Below are positions 1 through 28,290 of a stretch of DNA of 45,705 nucleotides, piece by piece. The notes under the pieces are model-generated. The model saw only the letters and a list, made by a program, of their open reading frames with translations, was not told the DNA's origin and searched no databases. A program made the translations under genes and the position numbers. Origin of the DNA: Candidatus Omnitrophota bacterium (GTDB taxonomy: Bacteria; Ratteibacteria; UBA8468; MWAK01). Numbering within the stretch: position 1 is the stretch's first letter; each line of letters starts with the position of its first letter. The DNA is taken from NCBI GenBank assembly GCA_043797665.1, contig JAZDPL010000040.1, forward strand, positions 1 through 45,705, read 5' to 3'.

Positions 1-67
1 CAATAATTTCTGATTAAGCCGAAAGGCTAATCCCTGTCTTATATTATATCGCATCCTCCCTCCAAAC

Positions 68-96
68 TTGACACAGGTTTTTATTTATGTTAAAAT
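68..96 (+). promoter_or_regulatory. Sigma70-type promoter for the IS genes
   Basis: TTGACA (68-73), 17 bp, TAAAAT (91-96), upstream of ATG 133. Confidence 0.7.
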
Positions 97-132
97 CCTA
101 ATAGTAAATAAAATAGTATACAAGCGGAATAT

Positions 133-549
133 ATGGAGTCCAGCAGAATCAGGCAACAATTAGGCTTTCTTAAAAAGGAGCGCAACTACTTAGAATATAA
201 ACTTACCCGTCCCTATCAAATGGTACCTTATTCTTTAGTAAGTTTGGCTAATATCTGCGGGAAACCCAACTGCCGTTGTAAGAAGGGCAAGCCTCACGGT
301 CCTTATTGGTACCTTTCCACTAAAGAGAAAGGAAAAACCAGAATGATATATCTACCCAAAAAAGAAGTGGCTTTTTTTATTCCTTTGGTCGAGCGCTACA
401 AAGAATATCAATCCTCTCTCACCAAACTAAGAAGATTAAACCAAGAGATTATTCAGTCTCTCACCCGGATTGAAAAAGCCTCTTTTACCAAACCCGAGCA
501 GAAAATAAGGAAAAAGAGAAAGACCGATGAAAAAAGAAAAAGAGGTTAA
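133..549 (+). CDS. DUF6788-like IS accessory protein
   Basis: CGKPNCRCKKGKPHGPYWYLS motif typical of this small basic family found upstream of transposases; overlaps the transposase start. Confidence 0.8.
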   Translation: MESSRIRQQLGFLKKERNYLEYKLTRPYQMVPYSLVSLANICGKPNCRCKKGKPHGPYWYLSTKEKGKTRMIYLPKKEVAFFIPLVERYKEYQSSLTKLRRLNQEIIQSLTRIEKASFTKPEQKIRKKRKTDEKRKRG

Positions 550-2023
550 GATAATAAAACTGGGTCTGTTTCCTTACGACAAGGAAAAGGTGTTGTGGAA
601 ACTGAAGCAAAAGGAATACGATGATGTCTTCTTGCGGGGCCGGGGCAGATTAGACGATTTTATCGGTTTTCTTTATCAAACTAAAACATTAAACCTTTTT
701 GAACAGATTAAAAGCCCAATGCAAAGAAGGCCAGAAATTCCCCGGAAATTCCTCCACTACTGCCTGTGCCTGAAGCCAGTGGTGGAATCTGCCAGCATCA
801 ATCAGTTACCAGGCCGACTCCTTGAAGATACCGATACTCTGCAGGAATTAGGATTTACCATTGCGGAGATTGAAGATGGTTTTTCGGTCAAAAACAAAGA
901 AGGCAAAAATGTGCCGGTCAATATTAACGCTTTTTACGACGAACTGGAAAGACTTCCGGAAAGTGAGACCAAAAGATTCTTTGAGGAAGGACTCTTACTT
1001 TTAAAAAGTGGAAAATTCCTTCCCAGGAAGAAAGGGGTCTATGCTTTGGATGCGGTTAAGCTTCTGATTACCGGAGACAAAAAGTACCAAAACTACGGTA
1101 AGATTACCTACCGGAAAGACGGTAAGGTAATCAAGGAAAAAGGCTATAAACTGGTTTTTGTCCAGAGGGTGGATGGTGAAGACTACTATGTCGTAGCCGC
1201 TATTGTTTTACCCCTAAACCAACACGAATCTACGGTAGGTGAATTTCTGGTAGAATCAACCTTGAAGACATTAGGAGAAGGTGCCATTGATATCCTTCTG
1301 TTTGACCGGGGGTTTTCCTCTGGTCCATTCTTTGATTTTCTAAAAGAAAAGGAGATTGATTTTGTCTGTCCCACCAAAGAAGATGAACACCTAACCAGGC
1401 ATATGCAGGGACTACACCGGGCCGGAGAAGAAACAATAGCAAAACTTTCTGATGGTACCATTCTGGCTGGTTATGACCACCTGATTAAGATGGAAACCTG
1501 CCAAAGAAAGATCAACGGCATCTTAATATTAAAGCAAGGCAAGAAAGGGAGAAAACAGGTGAAAGAAGGAGAAGAATTTGGTTTTCTTACCAGCCTTCCG
1601 GTAAGTTTCTCTTCTCAGGTTGAAGGAGGCTACTCTCTTTATAGCCGGCGTTGGAAGATAGAAACCAACGGCAACCGGGAATTAAAACAAGGCTGGTATC
1701 TGAACAAATTTCCTTGCCAGTCGTGGAATGGAATCTGCACGCATATCTACTTTACCCTCTTTATGTTTAATACGGTAACCGCCTTCCGGAGCAAAAAAGG
1801 CCGCTCTCTTACCGAAAAGGGTATCATCTCATTACGACATAAGTATTTTAAACCATTTCCCCGTGGGCATGACGTTACAGTGGTGACTGGTGGATGCTGC
1901 GCCACCTTTTCCTTAAAAGAGTTTTTAGAGACTCTCAACCTGCCTCCACCCGGAAAATACCATGGTATAGGTCCTATCTGGGTTCAATATCCAAACGGAA
2001 AAAAGGAACTGTGGGTACTGTAG
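527..2023 (+). CDS. DDE transposase (IS4-like)
   Basis: ALDAV...LLFDRGF...YSRRWKIE...ELK: DDE triad with a YREK-like motif, inside terminal inverted repeats. Confidence 0.85.
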   Translation: MKKEKEVKIIKLGLFPYDKEKVLWKLKQKEYDDVFLRGRGRLDDFIGFLYQTKTLNLFEQIKSPMQRRPEIPRKFLHYCLCLKPVVESASINQLPGRLLEDTDTLQELGFTIAEIEDGFSVKNKEGKNVPVNINAFYDELERLPESETKRFFEEGLLLLKSGKFLPRKKGVYALDAVKLLITGDKKYQNYGKITYRKDGKVIKEKGYKLVFVQRVDGEDYYVVAAIVLPLNQHESTVGEFLVESTLKTLGEGAIDILLFDRGFSSGPFFDFLKEKEIDFVCPTKEDEHLTRHMQGLHRAGEETIAKLSDGTILAGYDHLIKMETCQRKINGILILKQGKKGRKQVKEGEEFGFLTSLPVSFSSQVEGGYSLYSRRWKIETNGNRELKQGWYLNKFPCQSWNGICTHIYFTLFMFNTVTAFRSKKGRSLTEKGIISLRHKYFKPFPRGHDVTVVTGGCCATFSLKEFLETLNLPPPGKYHGIGPIWVQYPNGKKELWVL

Positions 2024-2092
2024 TCTACTCAAAGGTGGTCCACTTTTGCTTGAGCGATTACCGATGGGTTGGTGACTACCCTCAAATAGGGG

Positions 2093-2180
2093 GTGGGGAA
2101 AATTTACCGCCACTTTTTCTAACTCATTTAGAAAGTGGGGGATTTTCACCGCCACAAACTGGGGAAAAGTAAACCGCCAC
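2093..2180. repeat. Three imperfect 21-22-bp subterminal repeats in the IS right arm
   Basis: GTGGGGAAAATTTACCGCCAC (2093-2113), GTGGGGGATTTTCACCGCCAC (2135-2155), CTGGGGAAAAGTAAACCGCCAC (2159-2180). Confidence 0.7.
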
Positions 2181-2260
2181 TGACAAAAATACCCCTCCTG
2201 GTTACAGGAATGTTACTTTTGCCTTGCTTAATCAGAAATTATTGATAAATGTTACGCCAA

Positions 2261-2289
2261 TTGACATCCTTTGTTTTTTAGTTTATAAT
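2261..2289 (+). promoter_or_regulatory. Consensus sigma70 promoter
   Basis: TTGACA (2261-2266), 17 bp, TATAAT (2284-2289); AGGAGG ribosome-binding site before GTG 2328. Confidence 0.75.
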
Positions 2290-2327
2290 ATTTTGTGGTA
2301 TAATACAAAACACAAGGAGGGGGTATC

Positions 2328-2576
2328 GTGAAGACTAAATTAGAAATAAAGGAGAGATTAGATAAGGCGAAACAAGAAAATAATTTTTTTGAACATATCC
2401 TGCTCGGTTTTGCTTATGAATTTTACGACAAAGGTGTAGAGATAGGATTTCAAAATACCCTCAGCGAATACAGTGGTCTTCTTCAGATATTGAAGTCTAG
2501 AGAAATAAAAGACTTGGCGGGTATAGAAATTTGTGAAAAATTTATAGATATAGCGAAGTGGGTTTTAGAAAATTAG
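2328..2576 (+). CDS. Hypothetical protein (island cargo)
   Basis: 82-aa ORF with strong ribosome-binding site and promoter; AT-rich. Confidence 0.6.
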   Translation: MKTKLEIKERLDKAKQENNFFEHILLGFAYEFYDKGVEIGFQNTLSEYSGLLQILKSREIKDLAGIEICEKFIDIAKWVLEN

Positions 2577-2586
2577 GGGAATTTCG

Positions 2587-3063
2587 ATGGGGGAAATTAA
2601 ACCACTATCTGAATTTATAAAACCTGACAAGATCCTTGCTTCACTGGCAACAATTGAACCGCTTTCAGATAAAGGAAGGCGGATAACTATTGAAGATTTA
2701 CAAAAATATGTCAGCGAAGCAGAATTGAAAAAAGAAGTACCAGAAAAAATAGATGGAATTTTTGAAGCAGCAAAGATGGCTTTCGTTTATAGTTATTTCT
2801 ACTATCCTTTCTTCACAATAGCAGCTCATTATTCTTTACTGGCTGTCGAAGGTGCCCTGAAATTGAAACATAGAACTGAATTTCCCAAGGAACCTATAGA
2901 AAATTCAATATTGCATAAAATTATAGGAAATTTAGTTAAAGAAAAAATTATCAAAGAAAAAGATAAGGAGAAATATGATGTAAGCAGAAAATTAAGAAAC
3001 ATGTTTTCTCACACTGCAAAATTACAATTACTACCTCCTGGGCATTACGTTAGCAATCATTAA
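2587..3063 (+). CDS. Putative HEPN-like protein
   Basis: Helical pattern LLAVEGALK and a C-terminal RxxxxH motif (LRNMFSH). Confidence 0.55.
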   Translation: MGEIKPLSEFIKPDKILASLATIEPLSDKGRRITIEDLQKYVSEAELKKEVPEKIDGIFEAAKMAFVYSYFYYPFFTIAAHYSLLAVEGALKLKHRTEFPKEPIENSILHKIIGNLVKEKIIKEKDKEKYDVSRKLRNMFSHTAKLQLLPPGHYVSNH

Positions 3064-3111
3064 AGAATCTTGTCAACAGATAAACTCCCTCTATTGCAAA
3101 AAGGAATTCCA

Positions 3112-5088
3112 ATGACCGCAGCCCTCTATATCAGGGTTTCAACCCTCAACCAAATCGAGCGCGAAAGCCTCAAAAACCAGGAAGAAAGACTTGTTGCTTA
3201 TTGTAAGGCAAGCAATATAGCAGAACACAAGGTTTACAAAGATGCTGGTGTCTCAGCAAAAGATATTAAAAGACCTGCCCTCGAAGAACTGATGCAAGAC
3301 ATCAAGCAGAAAAAAATCAGTCTGGTGATAGTGACAAAGTTAGACAGAATTACCCGTTCCCTCAAGGATTTGATCGAACTGATGGAGTTTTTCGAGGAAA
3401 ACAAAATCAAATTCATAAGCATAACCCAGAGCATAGACACAACAGGACCAATGGGCAGATTCATGCTCAATCTGCTCGGCTCTGTTGCCCAGGTGGAAAG
3501 AGAAATGACAGCAGAAAGAGTAGGCGAGGACATGCTCCACAGAGCCTTGGCAGGAAAATGGAACGGAGGCCCTGTTCCTTATGGCTACACGATAAAAAGA
3601 AGGATAATCCGGGAATTAAAAGAAAAAGGCCTGCCGGAACACGAAGCAATAGAGCAGGCAAATAAAACAGCACTTGAAGCAAGAAGGCTTTATATTGATG
3701 AAAAAGAAGCAGAAACAGTCAAACAAATTTTTGATTTCTATTTGCAGGAAAGAAGTTTAAGAGGAGTAACCAACAGACTAAACACCGAAGGCATAAAAAC
3801 AAGAGAGAATTTCCCCTGGGCAACTTCTTCAATTTTAAGAGTATTGTCAAACCCAACTTATACAGGCAAAATCTGGTATGGCAAAAGAAAAACCAATCTT
3901 TCTGGCAAATTGGAACCGGTTTCAAAGCAGGAATGGAAAATAGTTCAGGGCGAGCATGAAAGAATAATCCCTGACGATACCTTTTACAGGGTTCAAGAGC
4001 TAATTAAGGAGAGAAGTTTCAAAAATACAAGAGCAAAAGAAACCTATCTCCTGTCTGGATTAGTAAAATGCGGCAAGTGTCAAGGTCCGATGTATGGCTA
4101 TACCTATAGAAGAAAATACAAAAGCAAAACAACCGGCGAGGAAAAAACTGAGAATTATTTCTGGTATAAATGCCACAACTATGCCTCAAAGGGCAGTTCT
4201 GTATGTACAGGCTTAACTCTGCCAGGAAAAGAACTTGAGGGTTTTGTTATTAAAAATATGAGTGAGCTTTCAAAAAACAAAAACTTTCTCAATGACAAGA
4301 AAGAGTTGCTTGATACTCTGAATAAAAAGGGCAAACCTGAAGATTCAACAGAACAGGAACTTAAAAATCTCGTTTCTGAGGAGAAAAACCTCCTTGAACG
4401 CCAAAAAGTGCTTCTGGACAAGTTGGAATGCCAGGTAATAGACGATCTCGTGTTTAAGAAGGAATTTGAGCGTTTAAAAGGGCTTTTGGACCAGAATTAT
4501 ACTATCCAGGATAAGTTAAAAGCACGCTCTAAAAACTTTGAATTTAACAAGATAGCACTTAATAACGCTTTTGAGCAGCTTGCAAACTTCAACAAGAACT
4601 TGGAGTTCCTTGACATAGAGGGCAAAAAAGCGCGGCTCGGGGCAATTATAAGCAAGGTTATTGCAGGTGAAGGTAAAGTAGTTGATGTGGAAATGTTTTT
4701 TGATGTACCTGAGGTTGTGGAGATGCTGGCAAGGGTGCCAAGTACTGGTTTGGGTGGGTTCAGACTTGTTGAGGATGTGTCCCGCACGGTTGCCCCTGCG
4801 GGAACCTGGGCCACCCCAAAAAGGCCTGCCGGTGCGGAGCGGCTCAGATTGCCAAGTACCGCAGTAAACTCTCCGGTCCCCTTCTTGACCGGATTGACCT
4901 GCACCTTGAAGTCCCGCCGGTACCCTTCAGCCACCTTTCCGACAACCGTCCGCCCGGAGAGACCTCCGCGGCCATCCGCGCCCGCATCTGCCACGCAAGA
5001 AAAGTTCAGTCCGCCCGCTATTCTTCTTCCCCCTCTGATTCTACCTCCCCCTTTGCAAAAGGCGGGTTCCCTATCCCCTGCGGGATAG
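3112..5088 (+). CDS. Large serine recombinase (integrase); C-terminal ~99 aa read through the att junction
   Basis: YIRVST catalytic serine, KLDRITRS, recombinase domain, CGKC...YKC...C zinc ribbon, coiled coil. ATG 3112 after AAGGA is preferred over TTG 3070. Confidence 0.93.
   Translation: MTAALYIRVSTLNQIERESLKNQEERLVAYCKASNIAEHKVYKDAGVSAKDIKRPALEELMQDIKQKKISLVIVTKLDRITRSLKDLIELMEFFEENKIKFISITQSIDTTGPMGRFMLNLLGSVAQVEREMTAERVGEDMLHRALAGKWNGGPVPYGYTIKRRIIRELKEKGLPEHEAIEQANKTALEARRLYIDEKEAETVKQIFDFYLQERSLRGVTNRLNTEGIKTRENFPWATSSILRVLSNPTYTGKIWYGKRKTNLSGKLEPVSKQEWKIVQGEHERIIPDDTFYRVQELIKERSFKNTRAKETYLLSGLVKCGKCQGPMYGYTYRRKYKSKTTGEEKTENYFWYKCHNYASKGSSVCTGLTLPGKELEGFVIKNMSELSKNKNFLNDKKELLDTLNKKGKPEDSTEQELKNLVSEEKNLLERQKVLLDKLECQVIDDLVFKKEFERLKGLLDQNYTIQDKLKARSKNFEFNKIALNNAFEQLANFNKNLEFLDIEGKKARLGAIISKVIAGEGKVVDVEMFFDVPEVVEMLARVPSTGLGGFRLVEDVSRTVAPAGTWATPKRPAGAERLRLPSTAVNSPVPFLTGLTCTLKSRRYPSATFPTTVRPERPPRPSAPASATQEKFSPPAILLPPLILPPPLQKAGSLSPAG
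4780..4803. other. Putative att junction (island/comM boundary)
   Basis: Dyad TCCCGCA-cggttgcccc-TGCGGGA centred on TG 4791-4792, exactly where comM homology (TGC CCC TGC GGG = CPCG) begins. Confidence 0.7.
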
Positions 5089-5342
5089 GGGGATGGAGGG
5101 GGATTTCCACCAACGCCCTCCTGCCCTCCCGCCACATCAAGGAATGCTGTGTTCTCACCCCGGAAGCCGCAGACCTCTTGAAGCAGGCGATGGAGAGGTT
5201 TGAATTGAGCGCCCGCTCCTACGACAAACTGCGCAAAGTCTCCCGCACCATCGCAGATTTGGACGGCTCCAGTCAGATAGAAGTCCAGCACATCTCCGAA
5301 GCCCTCCAGTACCGCGCCCTAGACCGCAAGGTCTGGCTGTAA
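4791..5342 (+). pseudogene. comM: 3' half of comM/yifB Mg-chelatase-like AAA ATPase, split by the island
   Basis: Frame absent from the ORF track translates CPCGNLGHPKKACRC...YRSKLSGPLLDRIDLHLEVP...LSARSYDKLRKVSRTIADL...HISEALQYR-stop. In-frame TGA at 4770 and no start codon before the junction. Confidence 0.92.
5028..5106. repeat. REP-like palindrome (CCCCCTTT...AAAGGGGG type) in frame inside comM, with a nested 27-bp hairpin
   Basis: TCCCCCTTTGCAAAA[GGCGGGTTCCCTATCCCCTGCGGGATA]GGGGGATGGAGGGGGATTT; comM frame stays open. Confidence 0.7.
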
Positions 5343-5371
5343 CTCTTTTTACTGCTGTTCCACTTCAATTA

Positions 5372-5380
5372 TGGTATAAT
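5372..5380 (+). promoter_or_regulatory. Extended -10 promoter of cassette 1
   Basis: TGGTATAAT (TGnTATAAT) 16 nt before ATG 5397. Confidence 0.5.
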
Positions 5381-5396
5381 ATTTAAATGGTGAAAC

Positions 5397-5615
5397 ATGA
5401 AACCCATAGACTATACCCCGATTGAACGTAATAAAAAGTATAAAGGCAAGTTTCTTGCGACGGTACGTCAGCGTGGTAAAATCAAGGTCCTTGCTGTTGG
5501 CAACAATCCAGAACAAGTCCTGAATGAAGCCTGGGCGAAAGGATACAAAAAACCCCACCTTACCCGGGTACCGTCAAGAAAATCTACTGCGGTTGTTTTT
5601 TACCATGTCCCTTAA
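5397..5615 (+). CDS. Small DUF5678-like protein (partner of aspartyl protease)
   Basis: KYKGKFLA...VLAVG...A...G pattern; overlaps the downstream protease gene. Confidence 0.55.
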   Translation: MKPIDYTPIERNKKYKGKFLATVRQRGKIKVLAVGNNPEQVLNEAWAKGYKKPHLTRVPSRKSTAVVFYHVP

Positions 5616-6000
5616 ATTCCCTTATGTTCTCCATGAAGGTTTCTATCGTCCGATTATTAACATTGATTTTCTAAAACCTGAAGGTGGACTATTTGAATTT
5701 GATGGTTTGATAGACTCAGGCGCACCTTGGTGTCTCTTCCCTGGATTTATTGCCACTCTTTTAGGTCACAAAATCCTGAAAGGAAAACTCCGCCATATGA
5801 AGATAGGAGGACATACGATTACCGCCTACATGCACAAAACCAGTACTTCTGTGATTACCAAAGACTTTGTCTGGGACATTTACTTTTCTCACGATATTGA
5901 TGACTGGGATTTTGGCATTTTAGGTCAGGACCTTTTCTTTTCAAATTTTGAAGTTACCTTCAATTACCCCAGGAAGGAAATTCTATTAAAACCTTTTTAA
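5605..6000 (+). CDS. Retropepsin-like aspartyl protease
   Basis: LIDSGA catalytic motif and GILGQD motif; ATG 5605 overlaps the upstream gene end. Confidence 0.8.
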   Translation: MSLKFPYVLHEGFYRPIINIDFLKPEGGLFEFDGLIDSGAPWCLFPGFIATLLGHKILKGKLRHMKIGGHTITAYMHKTSTSVITKDFVWDIYFSHDIDDWDFGILGQDLFFSNFEVTFNYPRKEILLKPF

Positions 6001-6099
6001 ATCCTCACTCCGGACGCTGCAGACCTGCTGAAACAGGCGATGGAGAGGTTTGAACTCAGCGCCCGTTCCTACGATAAACTCCGCAAAGTCTGGCTGTAA
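6001..6099 (+). repeat. Diverged copy 2 of the comM 3' end, with a 93-bp internal deletion
   Basis: Aligns to 5151-5240 then 5334-5342; translates ILTPDAADLLKQAMERFELSARSYDKLRKVWL-stop. Confidence 0.93.
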
Positions 6100-6112
6100 A
6101 ATCTCTTACCTT

Positions 6113-6142
6113 TTGACGAAGCAATTACAGATAATTTATAAT
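6113..6142 (+). promoter_or_regulatory. Promoter of cassette 2
   Basis: TTGACG (6113-6118), 18 bp, TATAAT (6137-6142); ATG follows only 10 nt later, so a near-leaderless mRNA is likely. Confidence 0.6.
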
Positions 6143-6152
6143 ATCATCCGAA

Positions 6153-6560
6153 ATGGTGAATAATAAGTCTAAACAAAAAGCTATCAATTTCTGGCTGGCA
6201 TGCACCCAAGATAATTTAGAAGCCGCCAAAGCGATGTTTGTATCGGGAAAGTGGAGCCTATGTATGTTTATGTGTCAGCAAACGGTAGAGGCTTTATTGA
6301 AAGCAGTATTTATCGTTAACAAAGGGAGTCGTCCAGAATATATCCATAAACTTCCAAATCTACTTCAGTTGACGGGCATAACCGTACCAAAATCCATTGA
6401 TACGAAAATACTCAGGATTGATGCGCATTATATCAAGGCACGGTACAAAGAGGACCGGTTTGACCCGCGTATTTATAACAAAAAGAACGCAAAAAATTTG
6501 CTTAAGGACACTGAGGATGTATTACAATGGTTTATTCGCAATCTGAAATTAAAAATATAA
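6153..6560 (+). CDS. HEPN domain protein (HEPN-MNT pair)
   Basis: W...DNLEAA...FMCQQTVEALLKA...YIHKL...YIKARY pattern; coupled to a nucleotidyltransferase. Confidence 0.88.
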   Translation: MVNNKSKQKAINFWLACTQDNLEAAKAMFVSGKWSLCMFMCQQTVEALLKAVFIVNKGSRPEYIHKLPNLLQLTGITVPKSIDTKILRIDAHYIKARYKEDRFDPRIYNKKNAKNLLKDTEDVLQWFIRNLKLKI

Positions 6561-6874
6561 CCAGACAGTTGGTAAAACTGCTCCGTAAAAAGATACCGGT
6601 TGAAACGGTAATCCTTTTTGGTTCCTATGCCTATGGTAAACCATGTAAGCATAGCGACATAGACTTGGCTGTAATTTCCCAAAAATTTAATCGGATGAAT
6701 GACATTAAAAGAATTATGTTACTTTCTGATTTAACCAGGAGAGTCAAAACTCGTTATCCTGTTGATATTGACCCGCTTGGATTTACCGCCGAGGAATTAG
6801 AAAAGGGGGATTATTTTAATATTACAACCATCATCCGCGAAGACGGGAAAATAATTTACGAATCTGTCCATTAA
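6527..6874 (+). CDS. Minimal nucleotidyltransferase (MNT) antitoxin-like protein
   Basis: ILFGSYAYG...SDIDLAVIS motif. Confidence 0.9.
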   Translation: MVYSQSEIKNITRQLVKLLRKKIPVETVILFGSYAYGKPCKHSDIDLAVISQKFNRMNDIKRIMLLSDLTRRVKTRYPVDIDPLGFTAEELEKGDYFNITTIIREDGKIIYESVH

Positions 6875-6884
6875 GCCCGGTTGT

Positions 6885-7028
6885 TTTAAATTATCTATCC
6901 GCTCCTATGATAAACTCCGCAAAGTCTCCCGCACCATCGCCGATTTGGACAACTCCGACCGGATAGAAGTCCAGCACATTTCCGAAGCCCTCCAGTACCG
7001 CGCCCTAGACCGCAAGGTCTGGCTGTAG
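6885..7028 (+). repeat. Diverged copy 3 of the comM 3' end
   Basis: Clear alignment from 6900 to comM 5214-5342: RSYDKLRKVSRTIADLDNSDRIEVQHISEALQYRALDRKVWL-TAG; left boundary approximate. Confidence 0.93.
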
Positions 7029-7037
7029 TTTTGCTGA

Positions 7038-7145
7038 TTGAAATTTGATGCAGAAAAGACGGTTTCTTATTGGGCCGCAGGTGCTGAATACGATCTTGAT
7101 ACTGCCAAAAAACTTTTTAAAGCAAAAAGGTATATCAATGGTTAA
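7038..7145 (+). pseudogene. N-terminal fragment of a second HEPN gene
   Basis: MKFDAEKTVSYWAAGAEYDLDTAKKLFKAKRY followed by an early stop; not in the ORF track. Confidence 0.7.
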
Positions 7146-7350
7146 AAAAGAAATTATAAGGAATTTACAAAAACTTCACAAAGCAGTGGAGGAGACCGGA
7201 ATACGAATAACAAAAATTGTTCTGTATGGTTCATACGCGAACGGCACGTTTAACCGGGACAGCGATATAGATGTTGCTATAGTGTCGCCAGTATATATAG
7301 GTCACTCCGCACCATCCATAGATATTCAAACCCGCCTTTATACTCTATAA
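7138..7350 (+). pseudogene. 3'-truncated MNT nucleotidyltransferase
   Basis: MVKKE...VLYGSYANGTFNRDSDIDVAIVSP, after which similarity is lost. Confidence 0.75.
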
Positions 7351-7422
7351 AATCTATCCATAGGTCAGGTTATCGGTAATTCTTATAGTCTATTAAAAAT
7401 GACCGGGCTATAAGCGATAATA

Positions 7423-7782
7423 TTGCTTATGGAAAAGAAAAACATCTACCATGATTTGGGTGTCAGAGTAAAAAAGATAAGAAAGGAATTAGGTATCAGC
7501 CAGGAAAAGCTGGCCTTCAAGGCCCGGATAAGTCCCACCTTTTTAAGCCATATTGAACGGGGAAGCAAAAAAGCCAGCCTCCGGACCGTGCAGAAATTAG
7601 CCGCGGCTTTAAATGTGCCCGTTCAGAATCTTTTTTCCCCACCCGGGGAACCGGTTGCCTACCTCAAGACCGAAGAAGACCTTTTCCTGCGGCGCCTGAA
7701 AGGTCTGATTGGAGAAAAGGGGGAGGATTTTAAGAAACTCCTCTATAAAATGGCCAGTTATCTGGCAGAGAGGGAAGGATAG
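7423..7782 (+). CDS. XRE-family HTH transcriptional regulator
   Basis: RKELGISQEKLA...LSHIERG...LAAALNV; start may be ATG 7429. Confidence 0.9.
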   Translation: MLMEKKNIYHDLGVRVKKIRKELGISQEKLAFKARISPTFLSHIERGSKKASLRTVQKLAAALNVPVQNLFSPPGEPVAYLKTEEDLFLRRLKGLIGEKGEDFKKLLYKMASYLAEREG

Positions 7783-7919
7783 CGGTGCGATTCCTGCCAC
7801 CAGAGACCACCTAACCACTTTTCACCTAATCTTGCGGCGACTTCACGCATTTGAACCGGAAGGTTCTATTGTAATACAATATCAGGAAAAACCGGGGCTA
7901 CCGGATTCAACTGCCGGAG

Positions 7920-9016
7920 ATGAATAAGAAATATATTATAGAAAAAGTTCGTCTGGACTGGGGGAAAATCCCGGTCCGGTTAACATTCAGTTACGGAAAG
8001 GTGGATTTTTTTCCTTCCTTATCGTCAGGCTGTATGCCGGTCAGGAAGTAGGACTTGGCGAGGTACTGGTAATCCCCAATGATTTCCTGATGTCTTTGGC
8101 CGCCTCACTGGTAGGAAGAGACGCCCGGAGTCTGGATGGTTTACTTCCTCCGACGGATAATGATGTTGACCGCATTCTTTGTGAAGCAATTTCTATTGCC
8201 CTTCACGACCTGACCGGTAAAATTTCCGGTCTATCCCTCAGTACTCTGGTTGGAGGCAGAAAAGCAGATTATATTTCTATTATGCCCTGTATTTTTCCCA
8301 ATAACCCGCAGGAAGCAGGAGAGAAAGCACACTACTTTTTCAAACAGGGCTACCGGTACCTGAAAACAAAACTTGTCGGCAGATTTGAGGAGGACCTGGA
8401 TAGAATTCGGGCTATCAGGGCGGTGGCTCCCCCGAAAGCAATACTGCAGGGAGACGCTAACAACGGCTACAAAAACTTTAAGGCCGCCGCCAGGGCGGTT
8501 AAAAAATTCGGGGAGGCCGGCCTGGATTTCTTTGAAGACCCACTGGAAGGCAGTACCGAAGACTACTGCAGGTTGAGGAAGATTGGCGGTGCCAGAATTA
8601 TGGTGGATGCGAAAGCGCGGCGTACCCGGGACCTTCTGATTACCCTGACGGCCGGAGCCGCGGACATAATTAATATTCATCCGGACCAGCCCGGCAGTCT
8701 GAGTAAGGTGGCCGCCCACGTACAGATTACCAGAGCATTTAACATTCCGGTTGCCATAGGCGGCACCGGTTATACGGGAATAGGCACCGCGGCCTACCAG
8801 CAGATGTCCGCGGCACTCACGCCGGATATGGCCTGCGGCGAAATGGGAGGTTTCTTTGACCACGGCATGCCCTGTTCTTTTGTCAGGAAACCTTTCAAGA
8901 TGGCAAAAGGATATGTTTACCTTCCGGAGACGCCGGGCAACGGAGTGGAACTGAATGAAGAAGCGATGAAGGAATTTCAGAAAGGCAGCCGTGAATGGAG
9001 ACAAAAACGTAATTAA
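7920..9016 (+). CDS. Mandelate racemase/muconate-lactonizing (enolase superfamily) enzyme, frameshifted near its 5' end
   Basis: KTK, DAN, EDP, D motifs in 8090-9016; the N-terminus MNKKYIIEKV... from ATG 7920 joins IVRL...GLGE in another frame across T7 at 8006-8012. Confidence 0.75.
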
Positions 9017-9060
9017 GCGGGAATATTCAGGCATTGACGTACCCGACCGGCAGAACGGAA

Positions 9061-9089
9061 TTGACTTGATGTATAATATGCTGTATAAT
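9061..9089 (+). promoter_or_regulatory. Sigma70 promoter of the AAA/DUF4143 remnant
   Basis: TTGACT, 17 bp, TATAAT (9084-9089). Confidence 0.65.
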
Positions 9090-9125
9090 TCACATCAAGA
9101 TAACTATTTAACAGGAAAATAAACA

Positions 9126-9598
9126 ATGAAAATCCCGAAACCCCGTTGGATAAGAACAACACTTGAGGGACCCTTATCCCGGCATAAAGTTAAGTTACTT
9201 TTTGGAGCGCGCCAAACCGGTAAATCAACCCTGCTTCATTCCCTGGTCTCATCCGACACTCTGTTTATTAACCTTCAGGACCGCCGGGAACGTTATTTCA
9301 ACAATGGGTAATAACCGAATTATGGCATCGGTGCACTTATCTGGGACGGAATTACCGGCTTTACTTCTGGCGTACGGTTTCCGGCGCCGAAGTTGATGTG
9401 GTTCTGGAAACACCGGAATCACTCATCCCCATTGAGGTGAAATGGACCGATAACCCCCGCCTGCCAGACGTTCGGCATCTGCTTACTTTTATCCAGACAT
9501 ATCCACAACAAGCGAAACACGGGTTCATTGTATGCAGGGTACCCCACCGGCTTCAAATTACTCATAACGTGACCGCGATACCCTGGCAAGAATTATAA
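9126..9598 (+). pseudogene. AAA/DUF4143 ATPase with a large internal deletion
   Basis: Walker A GARQTGKST fused out of frame at about 9290 to the C-terminus LFQQWV...YFWRTVSGAEVDVVLE...IEVK; the intact paralog at 25586 is 416 aa. Confidence 0.85.
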
Positions 9599-9619
9599 CG
9601 TGAATATTTAAGGAATTCT

Positions 9620-10144
9620 ATGCAGATTATCAGCCGGGACCCGGAAAACCGGATTTTCTACTGGGACCAGAGACCAACGCTCCTGACCGACGGAACCCTC
9701 CTTGACCTTTTCTGGACCTATGACAATCATCAGGCGATTTACCGGAATATTCATGCCCGGGAATCCGGGGACAACGGCAGGACCTGGTCGGAAATACGGG
9801 ACACCGGGGTGCCGGGACAGCCTGCACCGCCGGTATCCCTGAAAGACGGCCGGATTGCGATGGTCTACGTTGACCGTACTTCGGCGCCGGTTATTAAAGT
9901 GCGTGTAAGCAAGGACCGGGGCCGGACCTGGCCCGCAGAGACCGAAAGCCTCATCTATCGCAAAGAAAACCTGTCTCAAACTCAGAACAAGACAAGGATG
10001 CAGGATGCCTGGGCCGAGATGGGGAAATTTTCCGTGGGTTTGCCTGATACCGCAGGCTTACCTGACGGTGGGTTTGTGGCGGTTTATTACGCGGGCCCGG
10101 AGACCGACTGTACCAGTATAGAGTGGGTCCGTCTTAACGAATGA
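9620..10144 (+). CDS. Sialidase/BNR (Asp-box) protein, probably only the C-terminal part
   Basis: Asp-boxes SGDNGRTW and SKDRGRTW; 174 aa is too short for a full propeller. Confidence 0.65.
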   Translation: MQIISRDPENRIFYWDQRPTLLTDGTLLDLFWTYDNHQAIYRNIHARESGDNGRTWSEIRDTGVPGQPAPPVSLKDGRIAMVYVDRTSAPVIKVRVSKDRGRTWPAETESLIYRKENLSQTQNKTRMQDAWAEMGKFSVGLPDTAGLPDGGFVAVYYAGPETDCTSIEWVRLNE

Positions 10145-11079
10145 AAACCACCTGTTTTGCTGATTTGTCATTGTCGCGATTGATGTTGGGCACGGTCCAG
10201 TTCGGCCTCCCTTACGGTATCGCCAACCGCCTGGGGCAGCCTTCTTATAAAACGGTCCGGGATATTATCTGTTGCGCCTACCAGGGAGGGGTCAACTGCC
10301 TTGACACCGCCACCACCTACGGCACCAGCGAGGAGGTTATCGGGAAAGTACTTTGGGAATCAGGTCTCCAGGATAAGGTCGTAGTGGTAACCAAAATAAT
10401 GAGAGAGATTCCGGACAAAAACATTTCCTCAAGAGATGCGGATAATCTGGCCGGAAATGCGGTCCGGCTCTCCCTGAAGCGGTTACGCCTGAAAAGATTG
10501 CCGGTCTGCCTCTTTCACTCGGAACAGAACTTTAGATACATTGAATCTCTCCTGAAGTTACGGGAAAAGGGGGTAATCGGTCACGTCGGCGTCTCCGTGG
10601 AGACACCGTCTGCCGCCGCAAAAATCATTTCTTCCGGTCTTGCGGAAGCAATTCAAATGCCGACCAATGTTTTTGATTCCCGTTTTACCAAAAGAGGACT
10701 TTTTCAAAAGGCAAAACACAGAAAAATAGCGGTTTTTGTGAGGAGTGTTTATCTCAAGGGGCTCCTTTTCTTGAAAGATATCGAGATTCCCCCGGCGTTA
10801 AAAAGAGTTATTCCGGTTAGAAAGAAGATTCTATCTCTGGCAGACGAAGCCGGAATAACGCCGGCCGAATTAGCGGTCAGGTATATTCTGGGTATCCAGG
10901 GAACGACTTCCGTAGTAATCGGAATGGAATCATTAGAACAGACGCGCCAGAACCTGTCTCTTTTCGCCAGAGGGCCACTGGAACCGGACCTGATGAAACG
11001 TATTTCCGATGCGGTACCGGATTTGCCCGATACCATCCTTATGCCCTGCAAGTGGCCCCCATCCGAACGCCGTTGTTAA
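10141..11079 (+). CDS. Aldo/keto reductase
   Basis: LGTVQFG, DTATTYG.SE, TK, IGHVGVS motifs. Confidence 0.9.
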   Translation: MKTTCFADLSLSRLMLGTVQFGLPYGIANRLGQPSYKTVRDIICCAYQGGVNCLDTATTYGTSEEVIGKVLWESGLQDKVVVVTKIMREIPDKNISSRDADNLAGNAVRLSLKRLRLKRLPVCLFHSEQNFRYIESLLKLREKGVIGHVGVSVETPSAAAKIISSGLAEAIQMPTNVFDSRFTKRGLFQKAKHRKIAVFVRSVYLKGLLFLKDIEIPPALKRVIPVRKKILSLADEAGITPAELAVRYILGIQGTTSVVIGMESLEQTRQNLSLFARGPLEPDLMKRISDAVPDLPDTILMPCKWPPSERRC

Positions 11080-11096
11080 TCAACCGGAGGTAATTT

Positions 11097-12167
11097 ATGG
11101 AACCGTATGAACGCGTTTTAAAATCGGTCCGGCATCAAATTCCGGACCGGCTGCCGATTGACTACCTATCAACACCGGAAGCCGACCGCAATCTCAAAAA
11201 GTACCTTAAAATTGAAGATGATGAAAACCTGCAGAAAAAATTAGGGTTTGACCTCCGCCGGGTAACCGAAAGGTTTGTCGGCCCTGAAAATTTGTGCGGC
11301 GGCGCCGGCGTAAATGCAGTCGGCAGGGACTTCTGGGGTGTAGTCTGGAAACCGCAGGAGTATGGCCTGGGTACTTACAACGAGATTGCTTTCCACCCCT
11401 TGGCCGAGGCGAAAACCGTAAAAGAAATAAAAAATTATGCCTGGCCTGAATTAGACTGGTTTGACTTTTCCTGTTTGAAGGAAAAAATTGCCCGGATAAA
11501 CCGGGAAGAACGCTATGCCATCCTGTTCTTTGCCGGCGGCGCCTTTGAAACGCCCTGGTATCTCCGGGGCCTGGAACGGTTCCTGATGGACCTGGTAGAA
11601 TGTCCGGAGATTGCCGAGACAATCATAGACTGCGTGGTGGATTTTTATCTGAAGCGGACACTGCGGGCAATTGAAGAAAGCGACGGTAAAATTGACATTG
11701 TCTATAGCGGCGGTGATATCGGTACCCAGAAAGGAATGATGCTTTCCCCTGATTTATGGCGGAAGCATATCAAACCCTACAGCACCAAATTAATCCGTAC
11801 TTTCAAGGATATGGGTCTGATAACCTACTATCATTCCTGCGGAAGCATTAAGCCGGTAATCAATGATTTTATTGAAATGGGACTGGATATTCTGGACCCG
11901 ATTCAACCCCGGGCTTTTGATATGGAACCGGAAAAACTAAAGAAAGAGTTTGGAGACCGTCTCACCTTTCACGGCGGCATTGACGTCCAGGAACTCTTGC
12001 CTTTTGGCAAACCGGAAGACATAAAAAAAGAAGTAAATAGACTGATGGAGATACTCGGTTCCGACGGTGGGTACATTGTTTGTCCGGCCCATGCCATTCA
12101 ACCGGATACGCCGCCGGAGAACATTCTGGCTCTTTACGAAGCCGCCCGGCATTTCAGGAAAACTTAA
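11097..12167 (+). CDS. Uroporphyrinogen decarboxylase / MtaA-CmuA family protein
   Basis: YHSCG, LDPIQP, FHGGID, PAHAIQPDTPPEN motifs. Confidence 0.88.
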   Translation: MEPYERVLKSVRHQIPDRLPIDYLSTPEADRNLKKYLKIEDDENLQKKLGFDLRRVTERFVGPENLCGGAGVNAVGRDFWGVVWKPQEYGLGTYNEIAFHPLAEAKTVKEIKNYAWPELDWFDFSCLKEKIARINREERYAILFFAGGAFETPWYLRGLERFLMDLVECPEIAETIIDCVVDFYLKRTLRAIEESDGKIDIVYSGGDIGTQKGMMLSPDLWRKHIKPYSTKLIRTFKDMGLITYYHSCGSIKPVINDFIEMGLDILDPIQPRAFDMEPEKLKKEFGDRLTFHGGIDVQELLPFGKPEDIKKEVNRLMEILGSDGGYIVCPAHAIQPDTPPENILALYEAARHFRKT

Positions 12168-12192
12168 CCGTTAACTATTCAATAAACGCCGT

Positions 12193-12217
12193 GTAGTGCG
12201 ACCCTTTTCAGGGTCGC
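12193..12217 (+). repeat. GTAG-type REP hairpin, possibly also a terminator
   Basis: GTAG-T-GCGACCCT-TTTC-AGGGTCGC. Confidence 0.6.
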
Positions 12218-12232
12218 TTCCTTAACCATTAC

Positions 12233-12383
12233 CGTAATAGATTAGCGTCAGAAAGTCAGACATCAGACTAAACGTAGCGGGTAGATTCATCGCGGAAATA
12301 GTCGGATAAATCTGTCCCTGTGTGTAGTAAACAGGGATCCGACCGCTACATCCTCGGATACTATTTGACGCTAATGTGTTACG
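12233..12383. repeat. MITE-like element with 23-bp imperfect inverted ends enclosing a GTAG-REP pair
   Basis: CGTAATAGATTAGCGTCAGAAAG versus CTATTTGACGCTAATGTGTTACG (19/23 complementary); internal GTAGCGG...CCGCTAC. Confidence 0.6.
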
Positions 12384-12395
12384 AAAACTGAAGAA

Positions 12396-14336
12396 ATGAT
12401 GAACATGGTGGAGAAGTATGACCAGGGCTGGCGGATTAGAGCCGGAGGTCTCATTCTGGACCTGGATGCAAAGACCGGCAGTCTCTCCAATCTGCGGATA
12501 GGTAACGGCAAAGGATTTTTGTGGGCAGCCTTTCCGGGAAAGGTTACGGTGCGCGATGACCTTCTCGGGAAGACCTTTGGAGGGGGTCAGTTAAAGCAGG
12601 TTCTATTTTCTCGGCGGTCTGCCGGTTTGGAGGTAACCAAAGTTTTTGAAGGGGCGCCATGGATTCTGAAGGAATCTTATCTGATTGAGGAAGAGGCTCT
12701 CCGCTGGGAGGCAGAAGTATTTATGGAGAGCGGAGAGTTTCGTTCCTGTGCGCTCGGTTATCATCTTCCCTGGCCTCAGCCCCTTTGGCCGCTCTCTTTC
12801 TGGGCCGCCCGGGAGAATATGCCTTCCGCACCGCACCAGTTTTTCGGCAGCCGCCTGGAATACGGAGAAATTAACGGTGGGATTTCCATGCCCGCTCTCT
12901 GTTCTTATCATCAAGATAAAGACGTCGGTCTTTTAATCGCCATGCCTTTTGACTTCCGCACTCCCCGGTTCAGTTTCTTAAGTGATTATCGGCACCCGGA
13001 CCTGCGGGTGGAATTTGACTGGTTAGCGCTTGCTCCGGGCCGTTCAGCAAAGGCCAACCTGCTCTTTCGGGCAACCGGCGGAGACTGGCGGCCGGCGTTA
13101 GGCTGGCTCTATCAACGCTATCGGGAATATTTTGAACCCCGGTCAAGCCTTATCCATAGCCTCTGGGGCGGTCATCTTTGCGGCACATTTCACCTTTCAC
13201 CAGAAGAGGCTTCTACCATGGCGGCTCTTGGCCTGACCTGGTATGAAATCCATGAACATTTCCCGGCCTACGGAAACTATCATCCGGAAAAATTTTCCTG
13301 GAAACGTAGCGGCGGTTCCCCGGATGAGAGAAAAAACAAAACCCCTCGTAGCGTCAAACTCATTCGGCAGACTATTAGAACTCTTCATAACGTTGGTGCG
13401 GCCGCTTTGCCCTACATTCAAATTACCGGAGACGCCGACGCCAAAACCGTCTCTCCGAAATTCCCTGATTCTCTGATTCTGGACCGCCAGGGTCAGCCCA
13501 TCTACGTAGAGCTCTACGATGTCTATCAACTTAACTCGGACCCCTCTTTTTCTTTTGGAAAGGATGTTGTTCGGCAGATTAAGGGAATGGTGGGCCGGTA
13601 TCCTGAAATGGACGGAGTTTTTCTTGACCAGGCGTGTTACAACTGGCTGGATACCGGTCACCACGATGGAATTACCGCAGTCAACAATAGGCCCGGCTAC
13701 ATGACCGGTTTTAATTACTTGCCTCACCTGAAACTCCTCTCTTCTCTTTTACATCCCGATAAAGTAATTATCGCCAACGGTCCATTCGGTATCGGCATTA
13801 TGAAGTATATTGATGGTTTTATGGCTGAAGGTTCCGATTGGTTGTGTGAGCAGTCCCAGTATTACGGGCTTGCCAAACCGATGTTTTTTCTTGTTTATGA
13901 TACCACCGACCGGGATATTGAACTGATGTTCCAGCGCTGTCTTATCTACGCCGCCGGTTTTACCAGTTATCCCGCAGCCATAGGCTCAAAAGATCTTTAT
14001 GAAAAATATGTGCCCTTGCTGAAAAGACTCTTTCGCCGCCGATGGGTTTTTGACCCCAACCCGCTCCTTCTGCCGACCGGGTATAAAGGCGGTATCTACC
14101 GGAGTTTTTCCGGAACGCTGATGGCTACCATTGTAAGCGTAGAACCGCGTCTTGCCAACCGTATGTTAAGGGACAACTCCGTCGTGGTTCAAACTTCAGG
14201 CCTGGGGGACATTAAACAGGTTACCGTTCAGCAACCCGGAACCAAAATTATTCCGATTTCCTTCAAGAAGGAGCACGGCAAGGTTCTCTTTGATATCCCG
14301 GGCGATACGGTTGCCGGGGTGGTGGAGCTGAAATAA
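12396..14336 (+). CDS. Uncharacterised putative glycoside hydrolase-like (TIM-barrel) protein
   Basis: 646 aa; GDWRPALGW and DGVFLDQ motifs; similar to the protein at 36193. Confidence 0.55.
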   Translation: MMNMVEKYDQGWRIRAGGLILDLDAKTGSLSNLRIGNGKGFLWAAFPGKVTVRDDLLGKTFGGGQLKQVLFSRRSAGLEVTKVFEGAPWILKESYLIEEEALRWEAEVFMESGEFRSCALGYHLPWPQPLWPLSFWAARENMPSAPHQFFGSRLEYGEINGGISMPALCSYHQDKDVGLLIAMPFDFRTPRFSFLSDYRHPDLRVEFDWLALAPGRSAKANLLFRATGGDWRPALGWLYQRYREYFEPRSSLIHSLWGGHLCGTFHLSPEEASTMAALGLTWYEIHEHFPAYGNYHPEKFSWKRSGGSPDERKNKTPRSVKLIRQTIRTLHNVGAAALPYIQITGDADAKTVSPKFPDSLILDRQGQPIYVELYDVYQLNSDPSFSFGKDVVRQIKGMVGRYPEMDGVFLDQACYNWLDTGHHDGITAVNNRPGYMTGFNYLPHLKLLSSLLHPDKVIIANGPFGIGIMKYIDGFMAEGSDWLCEQSQYYGLAKPMFFLVYDTTDRDIELMFQRCLIYAAGFTSYPAAIGSKDLYEKYVPLLKRLFRRRWVFDPNPLLLPTGYKGGIYRSFSGTLMATIVSVEPRLANRMLRDNSVVVQTSGLGDIKQVTVQQPGTKIIPISFKKEHGKVLFDIPGDTVAGVVELK

Positions 14337-28261: not shown

Positions 28262-28290
28262 TTGACAAAAGGATAAAAATGCAGTATTAT
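28262..28290 (+). promoter_or_regulatory. Promoter of the second AAA/DUF4143 gene
   Basis: TTGACA, 17 bp, TATTAT, followed by the dyad GTCCTT...AAGGAC. Confidence 0.6.

Follow-up and report, generated by a model that had tools for sequence, protein, structure and literature searches.

Small cassettes stacked between diverged copies of the comM 3' end, and a recurrent mid-gene insertion site, in a Candidatus Omnitrophota bacterium

The window analysed here is a stretch of 45,705 nucleotides, contig JAZDPL010000040.1 of the GenBank assembly GCA_043797665.1 from Candidatus Omnitrophota bacterium (GTDB lineage Bacteria; Ratteibacteria; UBA8468; MWAK01), a metagenome-assembled genome (MAG) of 93 contigs in which it forms contig C37. 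This source genome is denoted G000, the other G numbers stand for the genomes with which it was compared, and the survey of the phylum covered 65 genomes. At positions 5151-7350, the window carries three small gene modules punctuated by in-frame, diverged copies of the 3' end of comM: a DUF5678-like gene with a retropepsin-like gene, then a HEPN gene with a gene for an MNT-type nucleotidyltransferase, and finally a broken HEPN gene with a broken MNT gene. A preliminary description had read this arrangement as a polarised stack, in which each incoming segment would supply a new comM 3' end plus cargo and push the older ones downstream, with the tail of comM serving as the anchor in the manner of an integron devoid of attC sites. 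Comparison with relatives showed that insertions into comM recur at a single fixed point and that units composed of the comM 3' third, cargo, and a conserved arm stand in tandem or behind an intact comM in other genomes.

Both tail copies and the cassettes were recovered where they had been described. Tail copy 2 (6001..6099, plus strand) starts at the equivalent of 5151-5154, is 88% identical between 6004-6091 and 5154-5241 (BLAST E 1e-24), and carries an internal deletion, the ends of which lie at the short repeats CGCAAAGTCT and CGCAAGGTCT. Tail copy 3 (6885..7028, plus strand), in which DNA homology begins at 6899, is 91% identical between 6899-7027 and 5213-5341 (BLAST E 6e-47). The comM frame is kept in both, up to the stop codons TAA at 6097-6099 in copy 2 and TAG at 7026-7028 in copy 3. 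The closeness of each tail to the stop codon of the preceding cassette was likewise borne out, the gap measuring 0-3 bases for copy 2 (from the TAA at 5998-6000) and about 10-24 bases for copy 3 (from the MNT stop at 6872-6874). No comM pieces were found past 7028 by tblastn, even at an E value of 50. The closing codons of comM make up a short hairpin (AGACC GCAA GGTCT) with a T-run behind it, at 5319-5336 and again at 7005-7022, the latter scoring as terminator-like in tail copy 3; tails kept in place might shield the cassettes from read-through.

The comM sequence ending at 5342, taken at first for the gene, proved to be a 3' fragment alone (fragment C, 4791..5342, plus strand), which in translation runs from the CPCG codons at 4791 to the stop and comprises the end of the Mg_chelatase domain (PF01078 positions 159-204) and Mg_chelatase_C. 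The 5' half of comM was not found in the assembly, which is 86% complete and in which PF01078 matched three C-terminal pieces only and PF13541 matched Lon only. Fragment C is 77-86% identical to two comM fragments on contig C83 of the same genome. Running into it from upstream is the gene of a large serine recombinase (LSR; 3070..5088, plus strand; Pfam Resolvase 8e-40, Recombinase 9e-25, and Zn_ribbon_recom 2e-12), the homology of which spans about 567 codons, to about 4770, with an open reading frame (ORF) that is free of stops up to the junction and then extends into the comM fragment, out of frame, over about 105 codons. The LSR homologues of G013 and G066 likewise terminate only beyond the junction, and the full C-terminus of the LSR may be present only in a circular form. 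The junction itself (4778..4801, plus strand), an exact match to the junction pattern that was located by alignment with intact comM genes and other junctions, joins the arm TGTCCCGCACGGT to the first comM bases TGCCCCTGCGG encoding CPCG and is, in the layout of its sequence, of the attR type. In the window, this arm consists of the last codons, the 3' end, of the LSR gene.

One common nucleotide, the first base of the CPCG codons, begins fragment C, fragments A and B of contig C83, five fragments of G013, and those of G006 and G009, and the intact comM genes of G002, G003, G005, G007, G008, and G011 read AAMN(P/S)|CPCG across the junction point. A related element-side arm (..TGTYYCGCANGGY) lies upstream of every full-length fragment examined. 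The insertion codon is common to G000 (three junctions), G006, G009, G013, G054, G065, and G066 as well as to 14 of 14 public loci. The combined pattern of arm and CPCG codons was found in four of the 65 genomes of the phylum, at seven loci of genome_contigs and at 11 of metagenome_contigs, some of these loci being in MAGs labelled Thermodesulfobacteriota, delta proteobacterium, and Aerophobetes. As the pattern carries about 41 bits, only about 0.5 chance matches would be expected in 596 gigabases by our own arithmetic. In all 14 loci examined, comM from residue 343-350 onwards follows the pattern, an agreement that is built in to some extent, since comM itself contributes 11 of the 24 pattern bases. 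On three Aerophobetes-labelled contigs (L070 from G067, at about 4471-7227 of the oriented strand, L078, and L072), the arm and a short comM fragment start stand upstream of an intact comM with an AbiEii and DUF6922 pair between them on the opposite strand, an order that the stacking model does not explain.

The other side of the insertion was met in two further genomes, in which LSR homologues of 63% (G013, contig C248) and 48% identity (G066, contig C27) have 3' ends that abut the 5' part of comM (residues 1-355). Read in reverse, these ends resemble the fragment start, as two half-sites of a serine recombinase should, and the arm is the 3' end of the LSR gene in all three genomes. In G013 and G066 the LSR gene lies on the opposite strand (L056 of G013, 1326-4068; L084 of G066, 3737-6314). 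Since the LSR is beside the comM 5' part there and beside the 3' fragment in the window, elements of this family evidently take either orientation relative to comM. With a conserved arm at the junction, and that arm being the 3' end of an LSR gene, comM offers both an att-like site and a candidate enzyme, contrary to the earlier notion of a system without att sites. The notion of the comM tail as the anchor also found no support, given that the left ends of the tails vary and that the sole fixed junction lies mid-gene at the CPCG codons.

Complete units are found in G013 and G009. Contig C259 of G013 reads fragment, DUF5678 and protease genes, arm, fragment; contig C201 of the same genome reads fragment, MNT and HEPN genes, arm, fragment, ParDE; and in G009 a HicA gene is followed by arm and fragment, so that the arm comes immediately after a tiny cassette in each of these cases. 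The fullest case of an intact gene is that of G065 on a 627-kb contig, where a comM of 509 amino acids is followed by 6.8 kb of unrelated cargo, the arm, and a complete displaced fragment of 477 nucleotides. The displaced fragment is 97.7% identical to the 3' part of the working comM (nine synonymous and two non-synonymous differences), and the working gene retains the native sequence across the restored junction; from this layout, a segment of comM 3' third, cargo, and arm was inserted exactly at the CPCG codons and left the gene whole. Restoration of the gene with a displaced old end, in the order intact comM, cargo, displaced copy, was met in G065, G007, and G011, in agreement with the preliminary proposal that an incoming segment supplies a new comM 3' end. 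Behind the displaced fragment of G065 (L083, oriented 10959-13119) lie genes for an AAA_21 ATPase, a DUF4276 protein, and an MNT protein, the first two of which resemble a known defence pair.

What follows comM differs among the relatives. Nothing extra was found downstream of it in G008, whereas G003 has an unknown gene of 233 codons there, G005 an aldose epimerase gene, G007 an AAA_14/DUF4143 gene and a tail, G011 MNT and HEPN genes with a tail, and G009 several tails with HicAB and other cargo; in G006, an element encoding a TraG-like coupling protein interrupts comM, and G013 has at least five fragments on three contigs. The cargo types behind comM thus comprise AAA_14/DUF4143, MNT with HEPN, HicAB, ParDE, DUF4258 with DUF2283, DUF5678 with protease, or none. 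Extra comM 3' pieces were tabulated in about 10 of the 65 genomes (G000, G007, G009, G011, G013, G014, G021, G023, G054, and G056), and several relatives' assemblies break within comM. The content and number of cassettes therefore vary as a stacking model predicts, and the picture of a polarised, variable locus given by the preliminary description holds.

A second array lies on contig C83 of the source genome, on the reverse strand. It begins with an XRE-type HTH gene on the opposite strand, followed by fragment A, MNT and HepT-like genes, an 83-nucleotide tail, DUF4258 and DUF2283 genes, a 109-nucleotide tail, about 5 kb of cargo (a protease-like gene, AlbA_2/HATPase_c_4 genes, and HTH genes), the 3'-truncated fragment B, and an ADP-ribosylglycohydrolase gene on the opposite strand. 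The comM locus of G007, from a neighbouring genus, reads comM, cassette, tail, and ends in the same ADP-ribosylglycohydrolase gene, by which C83 is syntenic with a relative's comM locus. No longer, fused relatives of the 146-amino-acid HTH protein were found, which is weak evidence, and its origin as a detached C-terminal tail of the recombinase was not confirmed. In one public groundwater run, available as contigs, 5% of the sampled words of the window were present, along with comM tails of relatives at 85% and 80% likeness. One contig of that run is identical to 7124-7291 and then, after a gap of unstated length, comM-like from about 5132; no mechanism was drawn from it.

Turning to the cargo in the window, the first gene of cassette 1 (5397..5615, plus strand) encodes a small protein that matches Pfam DUF5678 at E 0.004, under the Pfam cut-off; its counterpart in G013, 39% identical, scores 1.2e-10 against the same family. 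The second gene (5608..6000, plus strand), the start of which overlaps the first by eight bases, encodes a retropepsin-like protein with a DSGA motif; it has no Pfam match of its own and shares 31% identity with a protein of G013 that weakly matches Asp_protease_2. A recent transfer of this cassette between G000 and G013 was ruled out, the proteins being merely 39% and 31% identical. The pair is found behind comM fragments in two families (window 5397-6000; L046 1634-2250) and may represent a hitherto undescribed module of two genes for addiction or defence.

Cassette 2 comprises a HEPN-domain gene (6153..6560, plus strand; Pfam HEPN 2.1e-20) and an MNT-type nucleotidyltransferase gene (6527..6874, plus strand; Polbeta 3.2e-13, NTP_transf_2 1.4e-9). 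The two are adjacent and overlap, as is usual for HEPN-MNT systems, and form a putative toxin-antitoxin pair. Both proximal cassettes had been credited with promoters of their own. For cassette 2 this stands in the form of a promoter-like site at 6113..6142 (plus strand; TTGACG-18-TATAAT, 11 of 12 positions, a consensus match alone), while for cassette 1 there is only a TGgTATAAT box read by eye. The erosion ascribed to the distal cassette is plain: its HEPN gene is reduced to an N-terminal remnant of 35 codons (7038..7145, plus strand), weakly similar to residues 1-23 of a G011 HEPN protein (E 0.019), and its MNT gene (7138..7350, plus strand; NTP_transf_2 2.2e-11, residues 11-52) is truncated after about codon 51, at about 7291, with only the N-terminal halves of three MNT proteins covered by blastp.

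Beyond the last tail lies decayed cargo (7423..9598, plus strand), identified by Pfam and by tblastn with the G007 ATPase: an HTH_3 gene at 7423-7782, an enolase-superfamily gene at 8090-9016 from which most of the N-terminal domain is gone, and an AAA_14/DUF4143 ATPase gene at 9126-9598 broken by deletion, 131 letters in the window standing against 885 in a related contig of run X1. Intact AAA_14/DUF4143 paralogues are found in the window at 25586-26836 and 28289-29584. At the left edge of the contig, an insertion sequence encodes a DUF6788 protein and a DDE transposase (133..2023, plus strand; Pfam DUF6788 2e-20, DDE_Tnp_1 2.4e-16) and is the likely reason for the contig break. The linker of fragment C holds an in-frame, palindromic dispersed repeat of about 75 bp (5040..5113), for which a repeat search yielded 11 more partial copies on nine other contigs (C1, C8, C22, C36, C52, C61, C77, C85, and C92) and none in the C83 fragments. 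The G006 fragment has an insertion at the position of this repeat, which, as a mere idea, could be a hot spot for deletion. Nothing in window 1-12000 or in the C83 locus passed the Rfam gathering scores, after which a group II intron or RNA-gene origin of the repeats upstream of the fragments was dropped. A second serine recombinase of the source genome (C75, 25798-26232; an ORF of 560 amino acids) has no comM piece within 4 kb.

The divergence of the comM copies bears on where they came from. Copies in the window and on C83 differ by 8-20%, mainly at third codon positions, with a ratio of non-synonymous to synonymous differences (pN/pS) of 0.06-0.37 in 11 comparisons; fragment C and tail copy 2, for example, show nine synonymous and two non-synonymous differences. 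Had a copy simply decayed on the spot next to a gene under constraint, a ratio near 0.5 would be expected by our own rough estimate. The mainly synonymous character of the differences implies that each copy diverged mostly inside the working comM of another lineage, and the copies of the window, as judged from their substitutions, are diverged comM alleles that evolved as coding sequence under purifying selection. Similar distances are seen in G013, where the four full fragments compared are 11-18% apart and the comM 5' part is 88.8% identical to that of the congener G011. In G007, divergence from three congeners does not change at the CPCG codons, so no foreign 3' third was seen; this test is uninformative because the tail pair of G007 is merely 5% apart.

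The reading that we tentatively favour, at somewhat less than even confidence, is that units of comM 3' third, cargo, and arm were stacked at an LSR site in comM and that the short tails are truncated older fragments. A unit would enter at the CPCG codons, either through a serine recombinase acting in trans on units without a recombinase or within larger elements. Because the unit would bring a comM 3' third of its own, the gene would stay whole and the target site would be formed anew, at which the next unit would enter and displace the older units downstream. Displaced fragments, being no longer needed, would shed the arm and their 5' part by deletion, and toxin-antitoxin-like pairs would be the cargo likeliest to outlast the erosion. 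The outcome would be an alternation of cassette and tail, with the oldest and most eroded cassette farthest from comM. The short tails are accordingly likely to be what 5' truncation has left of older replacement comM ends, each about 0.5 kb long and brought in together with a module.

Signs of erosion by deletion can be seen in the internal deletion of tail copy 2, in the internally deleted fragment of G013 C201, in the 3'-truncated fragment B, in a decayed fragment with arm in G021, and in the broken HEPN, MNT, and AAA_14 genes of the window. That the DUF5678 and protease cassette family sits between two complete comM fragments in G013 supports an origin of the tails by deletion.

A number of observations weigh against this reading. 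The tails in the window have no adjoining arm, so that their descent from full fragments is deduced rather than seen; matches to the arm with up to two mismatches numbered 17 against 17.8 expected, the only exact one being that of the junction at 4778-4790. All 12 internal truncated tails in the tabulation of the phylum start at or beyond residue 81 of the 162-residue query, after the variable linker and in the last half of the fragment (two pairs among them being near-duplicates), a pattern that random deletion end points would not yield. The tail of G007 is 95% identical to the gene's own tail, and one left end is common to two tails of G009. As for the enzyme, an LSR lies beside the junction in only three junction-bearing genomes; a homologue was found within 5 kb in none of the 14 public loci and was absent from G065 at E 1e-10. 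Moreover, the circle of a recombinase-less unit would read arm, core, comM, which by sequence would be an attR, and canonical LSRs need a directionality factor to recombine attR with attB. The sole public run consisted of contigs and held a small share of the stretch, placing circles, empty sites, strain polymorphism, and variation in cassette number outside its reach.

Several of these observations speak for a tail-anchored exchange, a concrete form of the preliminary proposal, and this homology-based route is a serious rival, albeit an unlikely one in our estimation. Here, cassettes bearing a partial comM tail would enter by homology to the resident tail, and the recombinase site at CPCG would be a separate phenomenon within comM. 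Possible routes are the entry of a looped-out circle through one RecA-dependent crossover, a double crossover in which the distal tail of the donor provides the right arm, and homology-facilitated illegitimate recombination during transformation. The restriction of all 12 truncated starts to the conserved Mg_chelatase_C block past the variable linker, the absence of arms beside the window's tails, and the near-identical tails flanking one cassette in G007 (95%) and in G009 all fit such an exchange, and the identical runs, read by eye, between fragment C and tail copy 3 (47 nucleotides) and tail copy 2 (21 nucleotides) may suffice for RecA. It is opposed by the at least 10 distinct left ends with no junction common between genomes, each of which would need its own illegitimate founding event, by the G013 cassette of the DUF5678 and protease family with its full-length fragments and arm, and by arrays (C83 and G009) in which full units stand alongside truncated tails.

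Cycles of disruption and repair, which we also keep in consideration while judging them improbable, would instead have an autonomous LSR element split comM, after which a donor 3' end with its downstream cassette is joined illegitimately into the element and the recombinase is deleted, leaving cargo and the right-hand arm; repeats of this cycle would stack scars, and the units would never move. The LSR on the comM 5' side in G013 and G066 lies exactly where such a repair would delete it, and the units carry no recombinases. The interval from comM stop to cassette start, however, is fairly regular and short (54, 53, 52, 51, 62, and 30 nucleotides by our own count), and compact 1.3-kb units with complete arms, as in G013, are not expected from random illegitimate joints. 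A cell with a split comM should, furthermore, transform poorly given the role of ComM.

Two further explanations can be dealt with briefly. A local tandem duplication of the end of comM with subsequent decay of the copies in situ, already disfavoured and now hardly tenable, accounts for neighbours in an array being closest relatives (fragment C and tail copy 3 at 92%; fragment A and the third tail of C83 at 90%) but not for a pN/pS of 0.06-0.07 in three of four within-array pairs (two non-synonymous against eight or nine synonymous differences), where a value near 0.5 is expected. A wrong chaining of strain variants of one comM end during assembly, conceivable for a 93-contig MAG with relatives' contigs breaking inside comM, is just as implausible in view of copies that are 8-16% apart with unequal lengths and unique flanks, of the recurrence of the layout in independent assemblies (including contigs of 627 kb and 823 kb), and of tail-cassette joints shared by contigs of another run.

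Returning to units inserted at an LSR site, a bolder version can be put forward, which we consider doubtful: a comM-hosted, integron-like cassette system driven by a serine recombinase. Minimal units, about 1.3 kb in length and each made up of the comM 3' third, a two-gene cargo, and an arm of about 35 nucleotides, would be captured in trans at the CPCG codons. As the left end of the unit copies the right half of the target, insertion would regenerate the target (attL equalling attB, and attR equalling attP, by sequence), and stacking, excision, and reshuffling would proceed without a directionality factor. The leftover tails would double as homology arms for exchange by RecA between strains and phyla.

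Parts of this arrangement have parallels elsewhere. Phage 21 and e14 at icd of E. coli carry an alternative 3' end for the gene, the old end remaining as a pseudogene at the far border; the comM units resemble them in restoring the gene, and differ in that those are single elements with tyrosine integrases and a shorter duplicated segment. Polar stacking of cassettes beside a recombinase is known from integrons, and units without recombinases but with att-like borders from the accretion of cis-mobilisable elements (CIMEs) with integrative and conjugative elements (ICEs). The comM stack is not an integron. What recurs at its boundaries is part of a host gene joined to a recombinase-type arm; the six matches to the tyrosine integrase family PF00589 in the genome include none on C37 or C83; and a search for attC-type repeats gave four weak inverted pairs in 4700-7500, none at cassette borders. 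Integron cassettes are promoterless and read from one common promoter; cassette 2 may have a promoter of its own at the promoter-like site given above, itself a consensus match.

Contrary to the initial impression that no named system has this layout, composite islands of the staphylococcal cassette chromosome (SCC) and the ssrA islands of Dehalococcoides share its logic (PMC6222049, PMC3146451). The ssrA islands stand in tandem behind a conserved gene present in single copy, each delimited by a direct repeat of that gene's 3' end, and are moved by CcrB-like serine recombinases, many being without an integration module and read as cis-mobilisable or fixed (McMurdie et al. 2011, PMC3146451). 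As in the window, the ORF of their recombinase (dsiB of Dehalococcoides) overlaps the att site and finds its stop only past the junction. Their repeat, however, is a 20-bp segment that ends an RNA gene (PMC3146451), whereas the crossover in the comM stack falls in the middle of a protein gene, so that each comM unit carries about 480-560 bp of coding sequence; the comM units can also be as small as about 1.3 kb with two-gene cargo, and their older repeats are cut to 80-190 bp. SCCmec and the Enterococcus cassette chromosome (ECC) at rlmH employ large serine recombinases (CcrAB) that act on one constant site in the 3' region of a housekeeping gene that is conserved, with att repeats of about 50 bp, and their composites resemble the comM stack in having multiple attR sites and recombinase-less remnants (PMC6222049). 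They differ in having their site at the very 3' end of rlmH, in an island size of 20-80 kb, and in replacing no long coding sequence; minimal two-gene cassettes are not described in the parts of that source consulted (PMC6222049).

Genes for magnesium chelatase/ATP-dependent protease have been reported as the most enriched LSR target, hit by 12.4% of predicted site-specific integrases (Durrant et al. 2022, PMC10083194), and the LSR-comM junction of the window is one case of this targeting; replacement 3' ends, tandem recombinase-less units, and tail relics are not mentioned alongside it in the portion of the source consulted. Full-text literature searches returned no paper on replacement comM ends or recombinase-less comM stacks. 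The locus shares with tandem genomic islands an LSR with Resolvase, Recombinase, and zinc-ribbon domains (window 3070-4770), one fixed insertion point in a conserved single-copy gene, and successive units, some of them without a recombinase, that are set off from one another by direct repeats of the 3' part of the target. The comM stack is hence best regarded as a variant of these known islands, from which it differs by its mid-gene crossover, tiny units, and eroded tails.

The comM locus suggests how a gene can serve repeatedly as a landing pad without being lost, the newcomer bringing a spare for the part that it severs and rebuilding the site as it does so. This offers an explanation for the piling up of defence-type and toxin-antitoxin-like pairs behind comM in several little-studied phyla, and the arm followed by the CPCG codons provides a simple sequence signature by which such stacks can be found. 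Most of the remaining value rests with the mobility of the small recombinase-less units: if it is true that they move in trans, they would constitute a serine-recombinase counterpart of the integron, with a natural, self-regenerating att pair of interest for recombinase-based genome engineering. The diverged tails, for their part, record past comM alleles and hence past gene flow.

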